From: Escherichia coli
GTDB lineage: Bacteria; Pseudomonadota; Gammaproteobacteria; Enterobacterales; Enterobacteriaceae
Length of the DNA stretch: 64,000 nucleotides
NCBI RefSeq assembly: GCF_050920415.1
Contig: NZ_CP169309.1
Reading direction: 5' to 3' (one strand)
In this document: one piece after another, positions 43,805 to 51,885 of the stretch
How positions within the stretch are numbered: position 1 is the first letter of the stretch
Layout of the letters: every line of letters starts with the position of its first letter
Position numbers and translations under genes: made by a program
The notes under the pieces: model-generated
The model's database searches: none
Seen by the model: only the letters and a program-made list of their open reading frames with translations
Told to the model about the DNA's origin: nothing

Positions 43805-43940
43805 CGCAACCAAACGACTCGGGGTGCCCTTCTGCGTGAAGGCTGAGAAATACCCGTATCACCTGATCTGGATAATGCCAGCGTAGGGAAGTCACAGACC
43901 ACCAGGTCATTGCTTCTTCACGTTATGGCAGGAGCAAACT
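43805..43940 (+). promoter_or_regulatory. TPP (THI-box) riboswitch in the thiM leader
   Basis: Aptamer ctcggggtgcccttctgcgtgaaggctgagaaatacccgtatcacctgatctggataatgccagcgtagggaag at 43818..43891, with conserved CUGAGA and ACCUGAUCUGGAUAAUGCCAGCG elements; sits directly upstream of the thiM SD and ATG. Confidence 0.9.
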
Positions 43941-44729
43941 ATGCAAGTCGACCTGCTGAGTTCCGCGCAATCAGCGCACGCGTTAAACCTCTTTTACCAA
44001 CACTCTCCTCTTGTGCATTGCATGACCAATGATGTGGTGCAAACCTTTACTGCCAATACTTTACTGGTGCTCGGTGCATCGCCAGCGATGGTTATCGAAG
44101 CAGAAGAGGCCAGTCAATTTGCGGCTATCGCCAGTGCCTTGCTAATTAACGTTGGCACGCTGACGCAGCCACGCGCACAGGCAATGCGTGCTGCCGTTGA
44201 ACAGGCAACACACTCCCAAACGCCCTGGACGCTTGATCCGGTCGCGGTTGGCGCACTCGATTATCGTCGCCGTTTTTGTCATGAACTTTTATCTTTTAAA
44301 CCGGCAGCGATACGTGGTAATGCTTCGGAAATCATGGCATTAGCTGGCGTTGCTAATGGTGGACGGGGAGTGGATACCACTGACGCCGCGGCTAACGCGA
44401 TACCTGCTGCACAAACACTGGCACGGGAAACTGGCGCAATCGTCGTGGTCACTGGCGAGGTGGATTATATTACCGATGGTCGTCGCACCGTTGGCATTCA
44501 CGGCGGCGATCCGTTAATGACCAAAGTGGTAGGAACTGGCTGTGCATTATCGGCAGTTGTCGCTGCCTGTTGTGCATTACCAGGCGATATGCTGGAAAAT
44601 ATCGCATCTGCCTGTCACTGGATGAAACAAGCCGGAGAACGCGCCGTCGCCAGAAGTGAAGGGCCTGGCAGTTTTGTTCCCCATTTTCTTGATGCGCTCT
44701 GGCAATTGACGCAGGAGGTGCAGGCGTGA
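43941..44729 (+). CDS. thiM: hydroxyethylthiazole kinase
   Basis: 262 aa; translation matches recalled ThiM; stop overlaps thiD start. Confidence 0.9.
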
Positions 44730-45526
44730 AACGAATTAACGCTCTGACGATTGCCGGTACTGATCCGAGTGGTGGTGCGGGGATTCAGGCCGATCTTAAA
44801 ACCTTCTCGGCACTTGGCGCTTATGGTTGTTCAGTAATAACCGCCCTGGTAGCGCAAAACACCCGAGGCGTGCAATCGGTGTATCGCATAGATCCTGATT
44901 TTGTCGCCGCGCAGTTGGATTCGGTGTTCACTGATGTGCGAATCGACACCACTAAAATCGGTATGTTGGCGGAAACCGATATTGTTGAAGCGGTGGCAGA
45001 ACGGTTGCAACGTTATCAGATCCAAAACGTGGTACTCGACACCGTTATGCTGGCAAAAAGCGGCGACCCGCTGCTTTCACCTTCGGCAGTTGCCACGCTA
45101 CGCAGTCGATTATTGCCATATGTTTCATTAATAACGCCAAACTTGCCCGAAGCAGCCGCCTTGCTCGACGCGCCACACGCGCGCACCGAACAGGAAATGC
45201 TGGAACAAGGGCGATCGCTGTTGGCGATGGGCTGTGGCGCAGTGCTAATGAAAGGTGGTCATCTGGATGATGAGCAAAGCCCGGACTGGCTGTTTACCCG
45301 CGAGGGTGAACAACGGTTTACCGCACCGCGCATTATGACCAAAAACACTCACGGCACTGGTTGTACGCTCTCTGCGGCGTTGGCTGCACTGCGCCCGCGC
45401 CATACAAACTGGGCTGACACCGTACAGGAGGCAAAAAGCTGGCTTTCATCGGCATTAGCCCAAGCCGACACGCTGGAAGTTGGTCACGGTATTGGTCCGG
45501 TTCACCACTTCCACGCCTGGTGGTGA
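44726..45526 (+). CDS. thiD: hydroxymethylpyrimidine / phosphomethylpyrimidine kinase
   Basis: 266 aa; PfkB-like ribokinase-fold kinase. Confidence 0.9.
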
Positions 45527-45581
45527 GCACCGTACTATAGCTGCTTTGGTTATTGTCAGCCTTTGGCGCTGACATTCAGGG

Positions 45582-46409
45582 ATGAAACCAATGCAGCTTA
45601 GCATCACCAGTCGAAAAAAATTCACCGCTTTATTATGCGCTCTTGGGCTAATTTCCATCGTTGCAATTTATCCGCGTCAGACGGTGAATTTTTTCTATTC
45701 GACAGCTATTCAGATTAAAGACTACATCCACTTCTACGGTTATCGCCCGGTTAAATCTTTCGCTATTCGCATTCCTGCCAGTTACACCATTCACGGAATA
45801 GATGTTTCGCGCTGGCAGGAGCGGATCGACTGGCAGCGGGTGGCTAAAATGCGCGATAACGGTATTCGTTTGCAATTTGCCTTTATCAAGGCGACGGAAG
45901 GCGAAAAGCTGGTGGACCCGTATTTTTCGCGTAACTGGCAACTAAGCCGCGAAAATGGCCTGTTGCGTGGGGCGTATCATTATTTTTCCCCGTCGGTATC
46001 CGCCTCAGTTCAGGCGCGATTATTTCTGCAAACGGTGGATTTCTCACAAGGCGATCTACCTGCCGTGCTGGACGTAGAAGAACGGGGAAAATTATCGGCA
46101 AAAGAATTACGCAAGCGGGTAAGTCAGTGGCTAAAAATGGTCGAAAAACGCACGGGAAAAAAGCCGATTATTTACTCAGGAGCCGTTTTTTATCACACCA
46201 ATCTGGCGGGCTATTTCAATGAATATCCGTGGTGGGTGGCTCACTATTATCAACGTCGTCCGGACAATGACGGCATGGCCTGGCGCTTCTGGCAACATTC
46301 CGACCGTGGCCAGGTGGATGGCATTAATGGCCTGGTGGATTTTAATGTGTTTAATGGCACGGTGGAGGAGCTGCAGGGATTCGTTGATGGGATTAAAGAA
46401 ACGCCTTAA
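45582..46409 (+). CDS. yegX: GH25 lysozyme-like muramidase with N-terminal membrane anchor
   Basis: 275 aa; N-terminal hydrophobic segment; position matches K-12 yegX. Confidence 0.75.
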   Translation: MKPMQLSITSRKKFTALLCALGLISIVAIYPRQTVNFFYSTAIQIKDYIHFYGYRPVKSFAIRIPASYTIHGIDVSRWQERIDWQRVAKMRDNGIRLQFAFIKATEGEKLVDPYFSRNWQLSRENGLLRGAYHYFSPSVSASVQARLFLQTVDFSQGDLPAVLDVEERGKLSAKELRKRVSQWLKMVEKRTGKKPIIYSGAVFYHTNLAGYFNEYPWWVAHYYQRRPDNDGMAWRFWQHSDRGQVDGINGLVDFNVFNGTVEELQGFVDGIKETP

Positions 46410-46460
46410 ATAAGAAGCAGTGATATACTCCCTCCAGACTCATCGCCTGGAAAAAGACAA

Positions 46461-47207
46461 ATGGAACAAGCGCATACCCAGCTGATTGCCCAACTGAACG
46501 AACGTATTTTAGCAGCGGATAACACGCCGCTTTATATTAAGTTTGCCGAAACGGTGAAAAATGCCGTGCGCAGCGGGGTGCTGGAACATGGCAATATTTT
46601 ACCCGGCGAGCGCGATTTAAGTCAGTTAACCGGCGTTTCGCGTATTACGGTGCGCAAGGCGATGCAGGCGCTGGAAGAAGAGGGCGTGGTGACACGTTCG
46701 CGCGGCTACGGCACGCAGATTAATAACATCTTTGAATACTCGTTAAAAGAAGCGCGAGGATTTTCTCAGCAGGTGGTGTTGCGCGGGAAAAAGCCCGATA
46801 CGCTATGGGTTAACAAGCGAGTGGTTAAATGCCCTGAAGAGGTGGCGCAGCAATTGGCGGTCGAAGCGGGTAGTGATGTCTTTTTGCTTAAGCGTATTCG
46901 CTATGTTGATGAAGAAGCGGTCTCTATTGAGGAGTCGTGGGTTCCGGCGCATTTAATTCATGATGTTGATGCCATCGGAATCTCTCTTTATGACTACTTC
47001 CGCAGTCAGCATATTTTTCCAAAGCGTACCCGTTCCCGCGTTAGCGCCCGGATGCCGGATGCCGAGTTTCAGTCACATATTCAATTAGATAGTAAAATAC
47101 CGGTGCTGGTGATCAAGCAAGTGGCGCTTGACCAACAGCAACGGCCTATTGAGTACAGCATCAGCCACTGTCGCAGTGATCTATACGTTTTTGTGTGTGA
47201 GGAGTAG
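46461..47207 (+). CDS. yegW: GntR/HutC-family transcriptional regulator
   Basis: 248 aa; N-terminal GntR-type HTH and C-terminal UTRA-like region. Confidence 0.8.
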   Translation: MEQAHTQLIAQLNERILAADNTPLYIKFAETVKNAVRSGVLEHGNILPGERDLSQLTGVSRITVRKAMQALEEEGVVTRSRGYGTQINNIFEYSLKEARGFSQQVVLRGKKPDTLWVNKRVVKCPEEVAQQLAVEAGSDVFLLKRIRYVDEEAVSIEESWVPAHLIHDVDAIGISLYDYFRSQHIFPKRTRSRVSARMPDAEFQSHIQLDSKIPVLVIKQVALDQQQRPIEYSISHCRSDLYVFVCEE

Positions 47208-48146
47208 TTCCTCGCGGGTTGGCGCGCAATCACCGCCGCGATGCCCGACAACCCACGACGCCACTGCATTGCCCAGCAATACGGCATCCGCCAGTGGCAA
47301 ACCAGAGGCCAGTCCAGCTAATACGCCACCTGCATGACTGTCGCCCGCCCCAATGGTGTCTACAACTTGCGTTGGAAATGCCGGGATGCAGCCAGAAGCG
47401 TTATTGCTGAAATACCATGCGCCTTCTTTATCCAGACGAACGATCAACGGCGCGGCAAATTTCTCCTGCCATTGCTTGCCAAGTGTTGTTATCTCTGCTG
47501 ATAAAGCAAAACGTTCGGCGGCAATCTCAACCTCCTGACGATTGAGTGACACTAAAGGTCGACAGGCCATGATTCGCGCCAGTAATGCATCCGGGATATC
47601 GCCAATACGTGGGCCAAAATCGATGAACGGCGTCACGTCTTGCAGACTCTCCAGCCATTCCACTAACAATTCACCGCAGGGCGAGGCCAGTTGATAACCG
47701 GAAAAATAGAGCAGGCTGCCAGGCGCAACGGTTAATCGCGCCAACCATTCGCGATTCCACTGATTTTCCACACCACTGAACGACATAAACGTGCGTTCAC
47801 CATCAGGCTCAACCAGCGCCAGACACCAGCCGTTATCGCCTTCGGCGTTATCGATGAGGCTGATTAATCCTTCTTTCGCCATCCGGTTACGAATAATTTC
47901 CGCCCACACACCCTGGCCGAGCGGCAGGGCATTACCCGCTTCGATACCGAGGCGATTTAACGCCACGGCAATATTCAGTGCACAGCCGCCAACGTTAACG
48001 CTCTGCTGTTTCAGTTCGATATCGCACCCACGCCAGGGTAGGGCATAAGCGTCGGCGATCACATCAATGACCGCCGCGCCGACGACCATCACCGGCTGAC
48101 GCGTGGTTAATTCAGGCAGCAGCGTGTGTAATCGAGCGCCGCTCAT
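47181..48146 (-). CDS. yegV: PfkB-family carbohydrate/nucleoside kinase
   Basis: 321 aa; ribokinase-like motifs (GG dipeptide, DTxGAGD); 3' end overlaps the yegW 3' end convergently. Confidence 0.8.
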   Translation of the reverse strand: MSGARLHTLLPELTTRQPVMVVGAAVIDVIADAYALPWRGCDIELKQQSVNVGGCALNIAVALNRLGIEAGNALPLGQGVWAEIIRNRMAKEGLISLIDNAEGDNGWCLALVEPDGERTFMSFSGVENQWNREWLARLTVAPGSLLYFSGYQLASPCGELLVEWLESLQDVTPFIDFGPRIGDIPDALLARIMACRPLVSLNRQEVEIAAERFALSAEITTLGKQWQEKFAAPLIVRLDKEGAWYFSNNASGCIPAFPTQVVDTIGAGDSHAGGVLAGLASGLPLADAVLLGNAVASWVVGHRGGDCAPTREELLLTHKNV

Positions 48147-49147
48147 ACCGCCTCCCGTTGTTGGCGATACTTTGCCAGCGCCGTGGCATAATGATTAAAA
48201 TCAAGCTGATTTACCGCATCCAGCTCCGTCTTAAACGCAGGATCGATAGCGTTAACGCCATGCAATGCGCCGCAAATCGCCGTCGCCATAGCGCCGATGG
48301 TGTCTGTGTCGCCGCCAAGGTTAGCGCACAGGATGGCGCAACGGTTCGGGTCGGTTTGTGCCAGTTCAACCAGCGCAATGGCGCACGGAACGGACTCAAT
48401 AGTACTGGTACCTGCCCCAACCACCTGATACAGCTGTTCGCTGGCGGATTCGGTGCCGTCGGCATTGCGCACAATTTTCAGCGCAATCTCCAGACGTGCT
48501 GCCAGTGAGGCGCTGAAGGTAGTGATGCGTTTTTGCTGTGCATGTCGCGCAATCGAGGGTAGAGAATCAACAATCGCTGACCAGCTTTCTCCGTCAATGG
48601 CACGGGAAATCGCCCATGCGATGACTACTGCACCTGCCACCGCCAGATCGGATTTATGGGTCGGGCTGGACGCCAGCGCCACATCATCAATAAAGGAATC
48701 AACATCGCGCGCCGGAAGCAAACAACCTAATGGCGAGACGCGCATCGCTGCGCCGTTGGTCACGCCATTGTTTTCCAGTTCAGCAACGGGTTTACCGTCG
48801 CGAATGGCGTTAAGCGCAATCTTCGAAGTTGGGCCAAGCACGTTTTTGTTAAAGGCGTTGAAACGCAGCGCCCAGTCGAGAATATTACGCCCAATCAGAT
48901 CCGGATCAATCTCGCCTTCACGTTCCAGTAACGCATCAGCCAGGCAAAGAGCCATTGAGGTATCGTCGGTAAATTCGGCGCGGTTAAAATAACAGGCCGC
49001 GTTATTCTCCTTTGGTCCAGGCAGAAAACGGTCAATCCAGCCAAAGTGTGCTTTAACGCGGCTGCGTGGCCAAAGCTCGGAGGGCATCCCCATCGCATCC
49101 CCTAACGCCTGCCCATAAAGAGCACCGAGAATACGTTCTGTTTTCAT
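48143..49147 (-). CDS. yegU: ADP-ribosylglycohydrolase-family protein
   Basis: 334 aa; start overlaps yegT stop, stop overlaps yegV start. Confidence 0.8.
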   Translation of the reverse strand: MKTERILGALYGQALGDAMGMPSELWPRSRVKAHFGWIDRFLPGPKENNAACYFNRAEFTDDTSMALCLADALLEREGEIDPDLIGRNILDWALRFNAFNKNVLGPTSKIALNAIRDGKPVAELENNGVTNGAAMRVSPLGCLLPARDVDSFIDDVALASSPTHKSDLAVAGAVVIAWAISRAIDGESWSAIVDSLPSIARHAQQKRITTFSASLAARLEIALKIVRNADGTESASEQLYQVVGAGTSTIESVPCAIALVELAQTDPNRCAILCANLGGDTDTIGAMATAICGALHGVNAIDPAFKTELDAVNQLDFNHYATALAKYRQQREAV

Positions 49148-50421
49148 TTAACTTCCCCTTGTGTCAACGCAATATCGCGATCATCGACCTTGATAGCCGT
49201 AATTTCGTTGTCGGATTCGCGGAAAAAAATCATGAACAGCACGGCGATAATGGCAATCATCACCGCGCCGAAAGTCCACATCCCGGACCAGTTGAAAGTC
49301 AGTCCGTTTACCGGTTCCGGATAAGCGAACATCTTTTCCATCATCACACCGCCAAGACGATAGCCGAGCAAACTGCCGAATCCCTGGCAGCAGAGCGTGA
49401 TCAGCCCCTGCGCAGCGGTACGCATATGCACGGGGGCTTTTTTATCGACATAGATGTAAGCGGTAACGTAGTAAAAATCGTAACTTACTCCATGCAGCAA
49501 AATGCCGAGGAACAGTAACGCGTAGGTGAAATATTCATCCGCACTACCGTAAATAAAGAAGCCATAGCGGATCGCAGCGGTGACCAGACCAAGTAATAAT
49601 ACCTTTTTGATACCAAAGCGTTTGGTAAAAAACGGCAATGCCAGCATAAAGAAGATTTCAGAGAACTGGCCGAGCGTCATCCAGCCGGTGGCGTTTTTCA
49701 TGCCGACTTCTGTCAGATAACCGTTGGCAAAGATGTAATAGAACGCCAGTGGCATCGCAAACAGGAATGAACAGAAGAAAAAGACGAGGAAGTTTTTATC
49801 GCGTAGCAGGATCAGCGCATCCAGGCCGAGCATGACTTTAATGTCCATTTTGCCGGTGCTTTTTGGCGGCGTGTCGGGCAGGAAAAACGCAAACACACCG
49901 AGCAGAGCAGAACTTCCGGCGGTAATCAGCAGCGGGATGTTAGTCGGAGAGATATCGGCATAACCCAGCATTTGCGGCAAAAATCCACATGCCAGACCGG
50001 AGGCAATCCAGCCGATAGTGCCCATCACACGAATGCGTGGGAAATCACGCTCCACATCCGGCACGTTGGCAAAAGCGATACTGTTAGTCAGCGCAATGGT
50101 CGGCATATAGGTTAGCGAGTAGGCCAGCAGTAACGGGAAGAACCCGGCAAAAGTGGTCTGTTGCGCAGCGAAATACATCAGCGCCGCACCAGCGAACATC
50201 AATACCGCCAGCACTTTCTGCGCCGAGAAAAAGCGGTCAGTGATGGAGCCAACCAGAATTGGCGACAGGATCGCCGCAATGGCGGTACAGGCATACGACC
50301 AGCCAATTTCTCCGGCACTAAAACCGCTTTTACTTAACCACAACCACAATGGCACAAACCACGCGCCCCAGATAAACCATTCAACAAACATCATGAACGA
50401 CAGCTTTGCTGTTGTTTTCAT
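49144..50421 (-). CDS. yegT: MFS nucleoside:H+ symporter-family transporter
   Basis: 425 aa, multi-TM; first gene of yegTUV. Confidence 0.8.
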   Translation of the reverse strand: MKTTAKLSFMMFVEWFIWGAWFVPLWLWLSKSGFSAGEIGWSYACTAIAAILSPILVGSITDRFFSAQKVLAVLMFAGAALMYFAAQQTTFAGFFPLLLAYSLTYMPTIALTNSIAFANVPDVERDFPRIRVMGTIGWIASGLACGFLPQMLGYADISPTNIPLLITAGSSALLGVFAFFLPDTPPKSTGKMDIKVMLGLDALILLRDKNFLVFFFCSFLFAMPLAFYYIFANGYLTEVGMKNATGWMTLGQFSEIFFMLALPFFTKRFGIKKVLLLGLVTAAIRYGFFIYGSADEYFTYALLFLGILLHGVSYDFYYVTAYIYVDKKAPVHMRTAAQGLITLCCQGFGSLLGYRLGGVMMEKMFAYPEPVNGLTFNWSGMWTFGAVMIAIIAVLFMIFFRESDNEITAIKVDDRDIALTQGEVK

Positions 50422-50677
50422 CTTTTAATTCCTTCATGACAGGTAATGTAAGGTACGCGATGACAATACCATTTAATAATACCTTTTAAATACCTTTGCG
50501 GTGAAAACTTGACCGCGGTAACATTTTTTCTGATGAATCGAGCCAACAGAAAACGCTGAAAAAACATCCAAAAGATGGAAAAACTCGCCTGTAACGACCA
50601 GGATTATGATTGCCCGCAAAAGGCGGGCCAGGACAATCCATAGCCGATATCCAATCGGAATTTACGGGAGCATAGTA

Positions 50678-51730
50678 ATGACAGATATTGCGCAGTTGCT
50701 TGGCAAAGACGCCGACAACCTTTTACAGCACCGTTGTATGACTATTCCTTCTGACCAGCTTTATCTCCCCGGACATGACTACGTAGACCGCGTGATGATT
50801 GACAATAATCGCCCGCCAGCGGTGTTACGTAATATGCAGACGTTGTACAACACTGGGCGTCTGGCTGGCACAGGATATCTTTCTATTCTGCCGGTTGACC
50901 AGGGCGTTGAGCACTCTGCCGGAGCTTCATTTGCCGCTAACCCGCTCTACTTTGACCCGAAAAACATTGTTGAACTGGCGATCGAAGCGGGCTGTAACTG
51001 TGTGGCGTCAACTTACGGCGTGCTGGCATCGGTATCGCGGCGTTACGCGCATCGCATTCCATTCCTTGTCAAACTTAATCACAACGAGACGCTAAGTTAC
51101 CCGAACACTTACGATCAAACGCTGTATGCCAGCGTGGAGCAGGCGTTCAACATGGGCGCGGTGGCGGTTGGCGCGACCATCTATTTTGGCTCGGAAGAGT
51201 CACGTCGCCAGATTGAAGAAATTTCTGCGGCTTTTGAACGTGCGCACGAGCTGGGCATGGTGACCGTGCTGTGGGCCTATTTGCGTAACTCCGCCTTTAA
51301 GAAAGATGGCGTCGATTATCACGTTTCGGCTGACCTGACCGGCCAGGCTAACCATCTGGCGGCAACCATAGGCGCAGATATCGTCAAACAAAAAATGGCG
51401 GAAAATAACGGCGGCTATAAAGCGATTAATTACGGTTATACCGACGATCGCGTGTACAGCAAGTTGACCAGCGAAAACCCGATTGATCTGGTGCGTTATC
51501 AGTTAGCTAACTGCTATATGGGCCGGGCAGGGTTGATAAACTCCGGCGGTGCTGCAGGCGGTGAAACTGACCTCAGCGATGCAGTGCGTACTGCGGTCAT
51601 CAACAAACGCGCTGGCGGAATGGGGCTGATTCTTGGACGTAAGGCGTTCAAGAAATCGATGGCTGACGGCGTGAAACTGATTAACGCCGTGCAGGACGTT
51701 TATCTCGATAGCAAAATTACTATCGCCTGA
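50678..51730 (+). CDS. fbaB: class I fructose-bisphosphate aldolase
   Basis: ORF 50606..51730; start at ATG 50678 ([16 protein letters not shown]...), 350 aa. Confidence 0.9.
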
Positions 51731-51749: not shown

Positions 51750-51885
51750 ACTACCCCGTAGGGCGGATAAGGCGTTCACACCGCATCCGGCAACCTATGC
51801 CTGATGCGACGCTGAAGCGTCTTATCATGCCTACACAGCGCTGCCCCGTAGGCCGGATAAGGCGTTCGCGCCGCATCTGACATAA
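51750..51885. repeat. REP/BIME elements
   Basis: Two copies of the gccggataaggcgttc(a/g)c(a/g)ccgcatc palindrome family between fbaB and gatY. Confidence 0.8.

Follow-up and report, generated by a model that had tools for sequence, protein, structure and literature searches.

We analysed a 64,000-nucleotide stretch of Escherichia coli DNA (contig NZ_CP169309.1 of assembly GCF_050920415.1; the window hereafter), which carries the genes yegT, yegU and yegV and, converging on them, the regulator gene yegW. YegT is a transporter homologue, YegU is a homologue of the ADP-ribosylglycohydrolases (ARH), and YegV is a PfkB-family kinase homologue. We consider the chances about even that yegTUV is a tightly repressed cassette for the use of a riboside other than uridine, adenosine, cytidine and guanosine. 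We also propose, tentatively and at clearly less than even odds, that YegV and YegU form an undescribed two-step route, in which a kinase acts first and an ARH-type riboside-5'-phosphate glycosidase then acts on a small phosphoriboside, not on an ADP-ribosylated macromolecule. Such a route would have as its substrate a riboside outside the reach of the ordinary nucleoside enzymes. In the literature searched, we found no report of an enzyme activity of YegU or YegV and no reported substrate, in line with the first-pass annotation of this sequence, which had described the substrate as not established.

Results

The kinase-hydrolase pair is constant while the transporter changes

YegU has 7145 relatives among 1.84 billion representative proteins, and many of them are 600-760 residues long. 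BLAST comparisons showed that each of the long relatives joins a YegU-like domain to a PfkB domain like that of YegV, and the fusions occur in both orders (U-V in P0200, P0220, P0223, P0252, P0260 and P0266; V-U in P0209 and P0228). For the gene neighborhoods, 80 loci were obtained from a family-alignment scan of species-representative genomes, and five fetched enterobacterial loci were added, giving 85 loci. Cassette partners were counted in the 76 of them that contain a recognisable YegU open reading frame (ORF). The loci come from Enterobacterales, Vibrio, Aeromonas, Chromobacterium, Sutterella/Parasutterella, Dialister, Lachnospiraceae, Clostridium, Bacillaceae, Lactobacillaceae, Actinobacteria and others. 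In 64 of the 76 loci, the YegU homologue has a YegV-like PfkB gene no more than two genes away, and in 54 it has a YegW-like regulator no more than four genes away. The transporter adjoining the pair belongs to the family of nucleoside:H+ symporters (NHS) in 35 loci, is NCS1-like in another 16 and PnuC in a further 11, with none in the other 14; a PnuC member of the cassette scores 149.6 bits against TIGR01528, for which the cut-off is 42.45. The usual operon contains U, V, a transporter and sometimes W, and other neighbours are mostly singletons.

Because the U-V pair stays the same and its transporter is drawn from one of three unrelated families for ribosides or bases, these comparisons argue for an imported riboside as the substrate, with the kinase and the hydrolase acting consecutively. 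This is our main argument. Facilitators of the Pnu type need a partner kinase for trapping, as in PnuC/NadR; the PnuC-linked cassettes suggest a trapping kinase, and YegV may accordingly act on the transported riboside. The first-pass annotation had suggested a modified nucleoside or ribosylated compound from the combination of domains, and this idea is strengthened by the PnuC and NCS1 replacements and by the negative binding data for YegT described below (PMC11979927).

No riboswitch was found upstream of the cassette when 18 loci with U-V-PnuC or U-NCS1-V operons were scanned with Rfam; the scans matched only SRP RNA, lysine and TPP elements that are unrelated to it. No ADP-ribosyltransferase gene was found near the YegU homologue in any locus examined. 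A neighbour cluster that resembles M20 amidohydrolases, by resemblance only, is present in three loci.

Some individual loci deserve mention. In Leuconostoc holzapfelii (L069, 5160-7978), three genes on the same strand lie directly upstream of YegU-NCS1-YegV: a weak NrtR-like Nudix regulator (48.5 bits, under the cut-off), an MFS aromatic-acid/H+ transporter and a bona fide NadC (277.5 bits, cut-off 198.4). We regard this as a single-locus hint of a link to the metabolism of pyridine nucleotides. In Edwardsiella and Serratia (L034, L037, L038 and L048), the YegU homologue is paired with a YegW-like regulator alone, with neither kinase nor transporter, and is flanked by what we take, from our own reading of the sequence, to be a phoP-phoQ-like two-component pair and purB- and hflD-like genes. 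This pair is either a reduced cassette or another use of the hydrolase.

YegT belongs to the nucleoside:H+ symporter family

With the NHS nucleoside-permease model TIGR00889, YegT reaches 651.8 bits (cut-off 446.1), so that the nucleoside-transporter assignment made in the first-pass annotation holds at the family level. YegT contains the GxxxD motif of this family with the protonatable aspartate of transmembrane helix 10 (G311-V-S-Y-D315) as well as E255, and it matches the solved YegT structure 8zoj (E = 1e-280), which was determined at 3.1 Å (PMC11979927). YegT thus shares the family model, the fold and the GxxxD protonation motif with NupG and XapB, but it is only ~27% identical to them. 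The uridine-contacting residues of NupG are not conserved in YegT, and isothermal titration calorimetry (ITC) with uridine, adenosine, cytidine and guanosine detected no significant binding (PMC11979927).

YegV represents a distinct PfkB subfamily

YegV contains the GAGD anion hole with the catalytic aspartate, the GG pair and the ribose-diol aspartate that characterize the PfkB superfamily, and PF00294 is precomputed on its orthologues, so the earlier designation of YegV as a PfkB kinase is well founded. Residues D28, G53-G54, N58 and G266-A-G-D269 are invariant in the 64-65 cassette-linked family members, and C55 (62 of 64 members) and H271 (62 of 65) are signatures of the subfamily. When YegV was aligned with E. 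coli RbsK and 64 homologues, the ribose-diol and catalytic residues of RbsK (D16, GG, N46 and D255) were found to be kept, and RbsK N14, K43 and E143 corresponded to V26, C55 and A154 of YegV. The best NCBIfam match of YegV is ribokinase (E = 8e-23). We rejected the assignment of YegV as a plain ribokinase, as the score is 81.2 bits against an equivalog cut-off of 299.65 and the three RbsK residues are replaced. The score against the pseudouridine kinase model is 18 bits, with a cut-off of 540. Judged by these alignments and model scores, YegV is a distinct PfkB subfamily and not a ribokinase. By analogy with nucleoside kinases and the RbsK structure, the residue changes fit a ribosyl substrate with a substituent at C1.

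YegU retains the catalytic residues of the ARH fold

The AlphaFold model of YegU is of high confidence (predicted local distance difference test score, pLDDT, 97.4; predicted template modelling score, pTM, 0.96). Its top Foldseek matches in the PDB all have the ARH fold, namely MJ1187, a Thermus ARH-related protein, DraG and ARH3, with TM-scores of 0.82/0.90 to MJ1187 and ~0.77 to ARH3. PF03747 is precomputed on YegU orthologues, and the NCBIfam matches are to ARH-type models only, all far under the equivalog cut-offs. As a DraG equivalog YegU was rejected at 81.2 bits against TIGR02662 (cut-off 337.05), and as a Tri1 equivalog at 71.9 bits against NF041672 (cut-off 490).

Residues critical for ARH1 and ARH3 have been described, which in ARH3 are E41, T76, D77, D78, D314, D316 and T317 (PMC9738213). 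In our alignment they correspond to E24, T60, D61, D62, D280, D282 and T283 of YegU. Among 37 diverse members of the YegU family, D61 and D282 are invariant, T60, D62, D280 and T283 are kept in at least 90%, and E24 is found in 29. The first-pass annotation had made the ARH assignment depend on these catalytic residues, and with all seven present the assignment stands. Because the seven residues are kept and the model of the ARH fold is confident, the catalytic machinery of YegU appears intact and is predicted to be competent. The aromatic residues F143 and Y149, which sandwich the adenine in ARH3, are replaced by N126 and V129 in YegU, and the family has R/K/N/L and T/V/L/E at these positions. 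Given this replacement, binding of an ADP moiety by YegU in the manner of ARH3 is not supported by the alignment. In DraG the adenine contacts are Y212 and E121, and in ARH1 Y263.

The nearest solved relative of YegU in both sequence and fold is MJ1187 of Methanocaldococcus jannaschii (PDB 1t5j; E = 9e-30), followed in sequence by ARH3 (~1e-16). MJ1187 is 26% identical to YegU and ~30 residues shorter, and its PDB entry says only 'ribosylglycohydrolase' and 'hypothetical protein', so it gives no clue to the substrate of YegU. YegU has the same all-alpha fold (TM-score ~0.75-0.78) and the same seven residues as human ARH3 and ARH1, DraG of Rhodospirillum rubrum and Tri1, and metal-assisted cleavage at ribose C1 is presumably common to all of them. 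However, YegU is only 20-26% identical to these proteins, falls far under the DraG and Tri1 cut-offs and has other residues in place of the adenine-stacking pair of ARH3, and in the genome it is accompanied by a kinase and a transporter for small molecules instead of an ADP-ribosyltransferase.

Two unusual architectures were also observed. P0160 is a 692-residue protein of the YegU family with two tandem ARH domains. In loci L076 and L085, an 855-residue protein (cluster c99) adjoins the YegV-YegU pair; its N-terminal part is ARH-like, with DDDS and GWDTDCN motifs, and its large C-terminal domain has no NCBIfam match.

YegW may sense a phosphate-bearing effector

In published work, YegW was shown to repress yegTUV and was renamed GgaR, and a single genomic target was detected by chromatin immunoprecipitation on microarrays (ChIP-chip) (PMC10819704). 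In electrophoretic mobility shift assays (EMSA), GgaR bound two sites, the stronger in the 190-bp region upstream of yegT (probe-2) and the weaker within yegT (ORF nucleotides 571-869, probe-5), and no operator sequence was defined (PMC10819704). The same study found that yegTUV is one 3.3-kb mRNA, undetectable in the wild type and ~30-fold up without GgaR; that ADP-glucose frees GgaR from the fbaB/yegT spacer DNA in EMSA, with no effect of glucose or ADP; that the yegW deletion mutant has 2- to 3-fold more glycogen; and that the GgaR protein level is constant under the conditions tried (PMC10819704). It also cites a report that deletion of yegV lowers glycogen (PMC10819704). The first-pass annotation, which had rightly called YegW a GntR-type regulator, had missed this work, as well as structure 8zoj and the listing of yegV-yegW among excludons (PMC12288877).

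HutC-type NCBIfam matches, all under the equivalog cut-offs, cover residues 21-247 of YegW. PF00392 and PF07702 are precomputed on its orthologues in Salmonella, Citrobacter, Klebsiella, Kluyvera and another enterobacterium, and the N-terminal winged helix with a C-terminal, chorismate-lyase-like UTRA domain is that of the HutC subfamily. The closest solved relative is Bacillus subtilis NagR/YvoA (E = 5e-22), and the alignment covers the full length. The phosphate-binding residues of NagR are T90, R133, R135, S165, I166 and Y167 (PMC4333415). Their counterparts in YegW are S102, R145, R147, S175, L176 and Y177, and these positions are kept in 49 to 62 of 62 YegW-like, cassette-linked regulators. 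Several sugar-contacting residues differ, as R211, A224 and Y228 of NagR are Q, S and C in YegW. Since the phosphate residues are kept while these sugar contacts are not, we predict that the effector of YegW bears a phosphate and has a sugar or aglycone part unlike that of NagR. YegW also resembles NagR/YvoA and DasR, its nearest solved relatives, in that each of them represses, locally, an operon for transport and catabolism.

Tandem GGTATT repeats are candidate operators of GgaR

A repeat search of the spacer upstream of yegT against yegT itself identified two related 38-nucleotide elements, O1 in the spacer and O2 inside yegT, which are identical at 31 of 38 bases. Matches in 200 shuffles of the 190-bp spacer reached at most 25 of 38. 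O1 in the yegT sense reads GGTATTTAAAAGGTATTATTAAATGGTATTGTCATCGC and contains three direct GGTAT repeats, 11 and 13 nucleotides apart. The motif GGTATY-N5-GGTATTA has exactly two matches in the window, also when one mismatch is allowed, compared with 0.06 expected, and two matches were seen in none of 100 shuffles. O1 falls inside the EMSA-positive probe-2, and O2 inside the more weakly positive probe-5. The putative assignment of the GGTATT repeats as the GgaR operator agrees with the published binding map. In ~30 Enterobacterales loci, O1 hardly varies and keeps a fixed distance, whereas the remaining spacer diverges, and in Vibrio the sequence GGTATTGTATTGGTATT is found at the equivalent position. 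The predicted -10 hexamer of yegT (50481-50476) is located inside the O1 repeat, which suggests that GgaR may repress by occlusion of the promoter.

The synonymous positions of O2 are conserved in Escherichia, Salmonella, Citrobacter, Klebsiella and Kluyvera, but the site has decayed in Enterobacter. In a comparison of six genera, 6 of its 13 codons are the same throughout (background 0.19), and another codon window scores 7. A palindromic operator of the HutC type, similar to the dre site, was considered and rejected: in E. coli there is no matching inverted arm, only the tandem GGTATT repeats with 11- and 13-bp spacing. In this respect the candidate operator, a tandem direct repeat with 11-bp spacing, differs from the palindromic dre sites of NagR and DasR. 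The candidate operator sequence is new here; the repression and the two binding regions had already been published.

Layout and conservation of the locus

The positions of the genes and other elements are given in Table 1. All four ORFs are intact, and the gene coordinates of the first-pass annotation, its two 4-nucleotide overlaps and its 27-nucleotide overlap between the 3' ends of yegW and yegV on opposite strands all agree with the ORF list and the sequence.

Table 1 Features of the yegTUV-yegW locus and its surroundings in the window.
Feature	Position	Strand	Description
yegW (ggaR)	46461-47207	+	248 aa; from ORF list; GntR/HutC-type repressor, winged-helix DNA-binding domain and UTRA effector domain
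yegV	47181-48146	-	321 aa; PfkB-family kinase, distinct subfamily (by sequence comparison)
yegU	48143-49147	-	334 aa; ARH-fold (PF03747) homologue of binuclear-metal ribosyl hydrolases
yegT	49144-50421	-	425 aa; NHS-family (nucleoside:H+ symporter) MFS transporter
yegV/yegW tail-to-tail coding overlap	47181-47207	both strands	27 nt
yegU/yegV stop/start overlap	48143-48146	-	ATGA; from sequence
yegT/yegU stop/start overlap	49144-49147	-	ATGA; from sequence
O1, candidate primary GgaR operator	50457-50494	-	repeat search and motif statistics; -73 to -36 from yegT ATG
O2, candidate secondary GgaR operator inside yegT	49577-49614	-	ORF nt 808-845; encodes G-I-K-K-V-L-L-L-G
Predicted sigma-70-like yegT promoter	50476-50505	-	TTCACC, 18-nt spacer, TATTAT; consensus scan only, 9/12 matches
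TPP riboswitch	43810-43906	+	71.5 bits; precedes thiM
yegX	45582-46409	+	glycoside hydrolase family 25 (lysozyme-like)
fbaB leader hairpin	50601-50639	+	GCCCGC-loop-GCGGGC in 17-nt imperfect arms; 40-78 nt upstream of conserved fbaB start
fbaB mechanical ORF	50606-51730	+	374 aa
Rfam naRNA4 match	51761-51831	+	REP-derived nucleoid-associated RNA; 60.0 bits, gathering threshold 59.5

A 4.5-kb stretch with yegT, yegU, yegV, yegW and yegX is 100% identical to one E. coli chromosome. Of 5426 complete E. coli genomes, 5419 contain the locus at 80% or more of its length, with the genes annotated as yegT, yegU, yegV and yegW; yegTUV-yegW is a core E. coli locus. The order fbaB / yegT-yegU-yegV / yegW / thiD-thiM is common to Salmonella, Citrobacter, Klebsiella, Kluyvera and another enterobacterium.

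The ATGA overlaps are real yet unremarkable, as this is the commonest junction in bacterial operons; a stretch rich in purines that resembles a Shine-Dalgarno sequence (AGGGGA and GGGAGG) lies before each of them. The translational coupling of the three genes and their catabolic role, as read in the first-pass annotation, are putative. By crude ORF calling on the 85 loci, the -4 junction was found between U and V in 31 loci and between T and U in 23, and the 27-nucleotide convergent overlap recurs in 27 related loci. The overlap is also present in the gene calls of the enterobacteria named above. Given this recurrence, the arrangement appears conserved and not accidental. A simple sequence scan predicted no intrinsic terminator at the yegV/yegW junction. 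The pair yegV-yegW is among the excludon candidates derived from RNA-seq (PMC12288877), and its coding overlap gives it one feature of the excludon class, convergent genes with overlapping 3' ends; the class is further marked by overlapping antisense transcripts and mutually exclusive expression.

Neighbouring features

In Escherichia, yegX is located between thiD and yegW. It was not found at that place in the examined loci of Salmonella, Citrobacter, Klebsiella, Kluyvera and other enterobacteria, where yegW directly follows thiD, and it looks like a lineage-specific insertion. The genes thiM, thiD, yegX and yegW are on the same strand (43810-47207, +), the gaps flanking yegX are 55 and 51 nucleotides, and simple scans found no promoter- or terminator-like site in these gaps. 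For these reasons, transcripts of the thiMD operon, which is under thiamine control, might read through into yegW. In the other genera, yegW lies ~35-57 nucleotides after thiD on the same strand. We do not use the adjacency to thiMD as functional evidence, as it is confined to Enterobacteriaceae and so amounts to a single vertical inheritance.

On the other side of the cassette, the CCCGC/GCGGG stem of the fbaB leader hairpin is kept with other loops in Salmonella and Citrobacter, with a fold z-score of only -1.84. Orthologues of fbaB are 349-350 residues long, which fits the ATG at 50679 (MTDIAQLL...), and the 24-codon upstream extension of the mechanical ORF is probably not translated. The naRNA4 match is located just past fbaB.

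Discussion

Published experiments have demonstrated that GgaR represses the operon and binds two regions, that there is a single transcript and that ADP-glucose has an effect, and we infer every enzymatic step. In the proposed pathway, YegT would import a non-canonical riboside, and YegV would phosphorylate its ribose 5'-OH so that it is trapped in the cell. YegU, acting as a two-metal hydrolase of the ARH fold, would then cut the bond at ribose C1 to give ribose-5-phosphate and the free aglycone. GgaR, the published repressor of yegTUV, may act through the tandem GGTATT repeats over the predicted -10 hexamer and the weaker copy in yegT. YegW would be freed by a phosphate-bearing ligand, most plausibly the product of YegV or a related phosphoribosyl compound, and the effect of ADP-glucose may be mimicry of this natural ligand. 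Once derepressed, yegTUV transcription would run antisense into the 3' end of yegW through the 27-nucleotide overlap, which could sharpen induction.

Two classes of substrate are candidates. One is a pyridinium riboside (nicotinamide or nicotinate type), in which case the NMN-nucleosidase-type activity would be assigned a gene. The other is an alpha-linked riboside, for example from cobamide lower ligands or poly(ADP-ribose). The hints are the PnuC-linked cassettes, the one Leuconostoc locus by nadC and the alpha specificity of ARH1 and ARH3.

The logic of the cassette is most like that of the pseudouridine kinase/glycosidase pair and of PnuC-NadR trapping, although it is a member of neither. 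In the pseudouridine system, the PfkB kinase YeiC/PsuK makes a 5'-phosphate, which the metal-dependent glycosidase YeiN/PsuG converts to ribose-5-phosphate and base, and the genes are adjacent and accompanied by a nucleoside transporter. The glycosidase there has the YeiN-type fold, whereas YegU has the ARH fold, and YegV falls under the pseudouridine kinase cut-off. PnuC-NadR likewise combines a riboside transporter with a cytoplasmic trapping kinase, and genes of the PnuC family take the place of yegT in 11 cassettes. However, NadR is not a PfkB kinase, that salvage route has no hydrolase step, and the E. coli cassette uses an NHS transporter.

Several points weigh against the proposed pathway. 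The substrate of YegU and YegV, the order of the steps and the products are all our own inferences, and for YegV we lean on the roles of RbsK N14, K43 and E143 in ribose binding as seen in the RbsK structure. Ordinary nucleosides are beta-linked. ARH1 and ARH3 are specific for the alpha anomer and act on ADP-ribosyl conjugates (PMC9738213), so that under the model either the substrate must be an alpha-riboside or the stereochemistry must be new. The sole published effector, ADP-glucose, and the sole phenotype, raised glycogen in the yegW mutant, are not directly explained. Among the 76 loci, 12 have no nearby kinase and 14 have no adjacent transporter; Edwardsiella and Serratia marcescens have yegU and yegW only; and no recurrent gene of aglycone metabolism appeared in the operon-level tallies of the loci. 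Finally, the synonymous-site conservation of O2 is suggestive but not unique.

The same genes could work in the opposite order, with YegU splitting a riboside into ribose and aglycone and a ribokinase-like YegV phosphorylating the ribose, as in scavenging loci of Bacteroides. The adjacency and the fusions of U and V are compatible with either order, and the ribokinase match of YegV (E = 8e-23), with its ribose-diol and catalytic residues kept, speaks for this order. YegV, however, scores 81 bits where the ribokinase cut-off is 299.65, has replacements at RbsK N14, K43 and E143 and carries family-specific Cys and His, and E. coli already possesses RbsK. The PnuC-linked cassettes suggest instead that the kinase traps a transported riboside, and the phosphate site of YegW fits a phosphorylated intermediate, though ribose-5-phosphate would fit it too. 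We therefore consider hydrolysis before phosphorylation unlikely. The precedent for it comes from the ribose-utilisation (Rus) loci of Bacteroidetes, which combine ribokinase-type kinases and a permease with, in some species, ADP-ribosylglycohydrolase-family genes, and which were proposed to free ribose from diverse ribosylated nutrients (bioRxiv 10.1101/574913). We liken them to yegTUV by their described families; they differ in being of the polysaccharide-utilisation type, with SusC/D-like outer-membrane components.

The published model treats yegTUV as a module of ADP-glucose and glycogen metabolism, in which GgaR senses ADP-glucose, the YegTUV proteins act on or supply it, and derepression raises glycogen. 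It is at odds with the PnuC and NCS1 transporters that accompany the cassette in many Firmicutes and Betaproteobacteria, as these families are known for uncharged or cationic ribosides and bases and not for nucleotide sugars. The ADP-glucose model accounts for the release of GgaR by ADP-glucose but not by glucose or ADP, for the ~30-fold rise in yegTUV mRNA and 2- to 3-fold rise in glycogen on yegW deletion, and for the reported loss of glycogen on yegV deletion (PMC10819704). It offers no enzymatic link, its authors call the gene-function basis 'somewhat ambiguous', and the few ligands tried did not include ribose phosphates, ADP-ribose or nucleotides beyond ADP (PMC10819704). Moreover, ARH chemistry cuts at ribose C1'' (PMC9738213), and the structure of ADP-glucose contains no such bond. 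The glycogen effect could also be indirect: AMP is the main inhibitor of ADP-glucose pyrophosphorylase, and its level might fall when a phosphoriboside hydrolase, as proposed here, is derepressed. On balance this model seems improbable to us. Still more improbable, in our view, is true de-ADP-ribosylation, in which YegU would free ADP-ribose from a protein, a nucleic acid or a small molecule such as O-acetyl-ADP-ribose or alpha-NAD+, with the kinase and transporter only loosely tied to it. The full ARH fold and metal site of YegU and the response of GgaR to an ADP-sugar (PMC10819704) speak for it. But the tight and ancient linkage of YegU, including fusion, is to a PfkB kinase and riboside transporters, no ADP-ribosyltransferase gene is close by in any locus examined, the DraG and Tri1 scores are 81 against 337 and 72 against 490 bits, and the adenine contacts of ARH3 are absent.

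The locus, its annotation and its regulator were already known, the substrate is an acknowledged question, and the locus is not a discovery as a genome-scan find. What is new here is the candidate operator, the intact catalytic residues of YegU, the distinct subfamily of YegV, the fusions, the swapping of transporters and the predicted phosphorylated effector. The genes yegT, yegU and yegV are among those of E. coli K-12 still without a biochemical function, and the yegU-yegV pair is widespread in gut and environmental bacteria of several phyla. The operator sequence, the catalytic residues, the phosphate-bearing effector and the candidate substrate class can all be tested, which is the practical gain of this analysis. 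If YegV and YegU do act as a kinase followed by a hydrolase, the ARH fold, otherwise known for reversing ADP-ribosylation, would have a new catalytic role, the glycogen phenotype of the regulator mutant would gain a mechanistic footing, and a pathway for the use or salvage of a ribosylated nutrient or compound, absent from current metabolic maps, would be identified.

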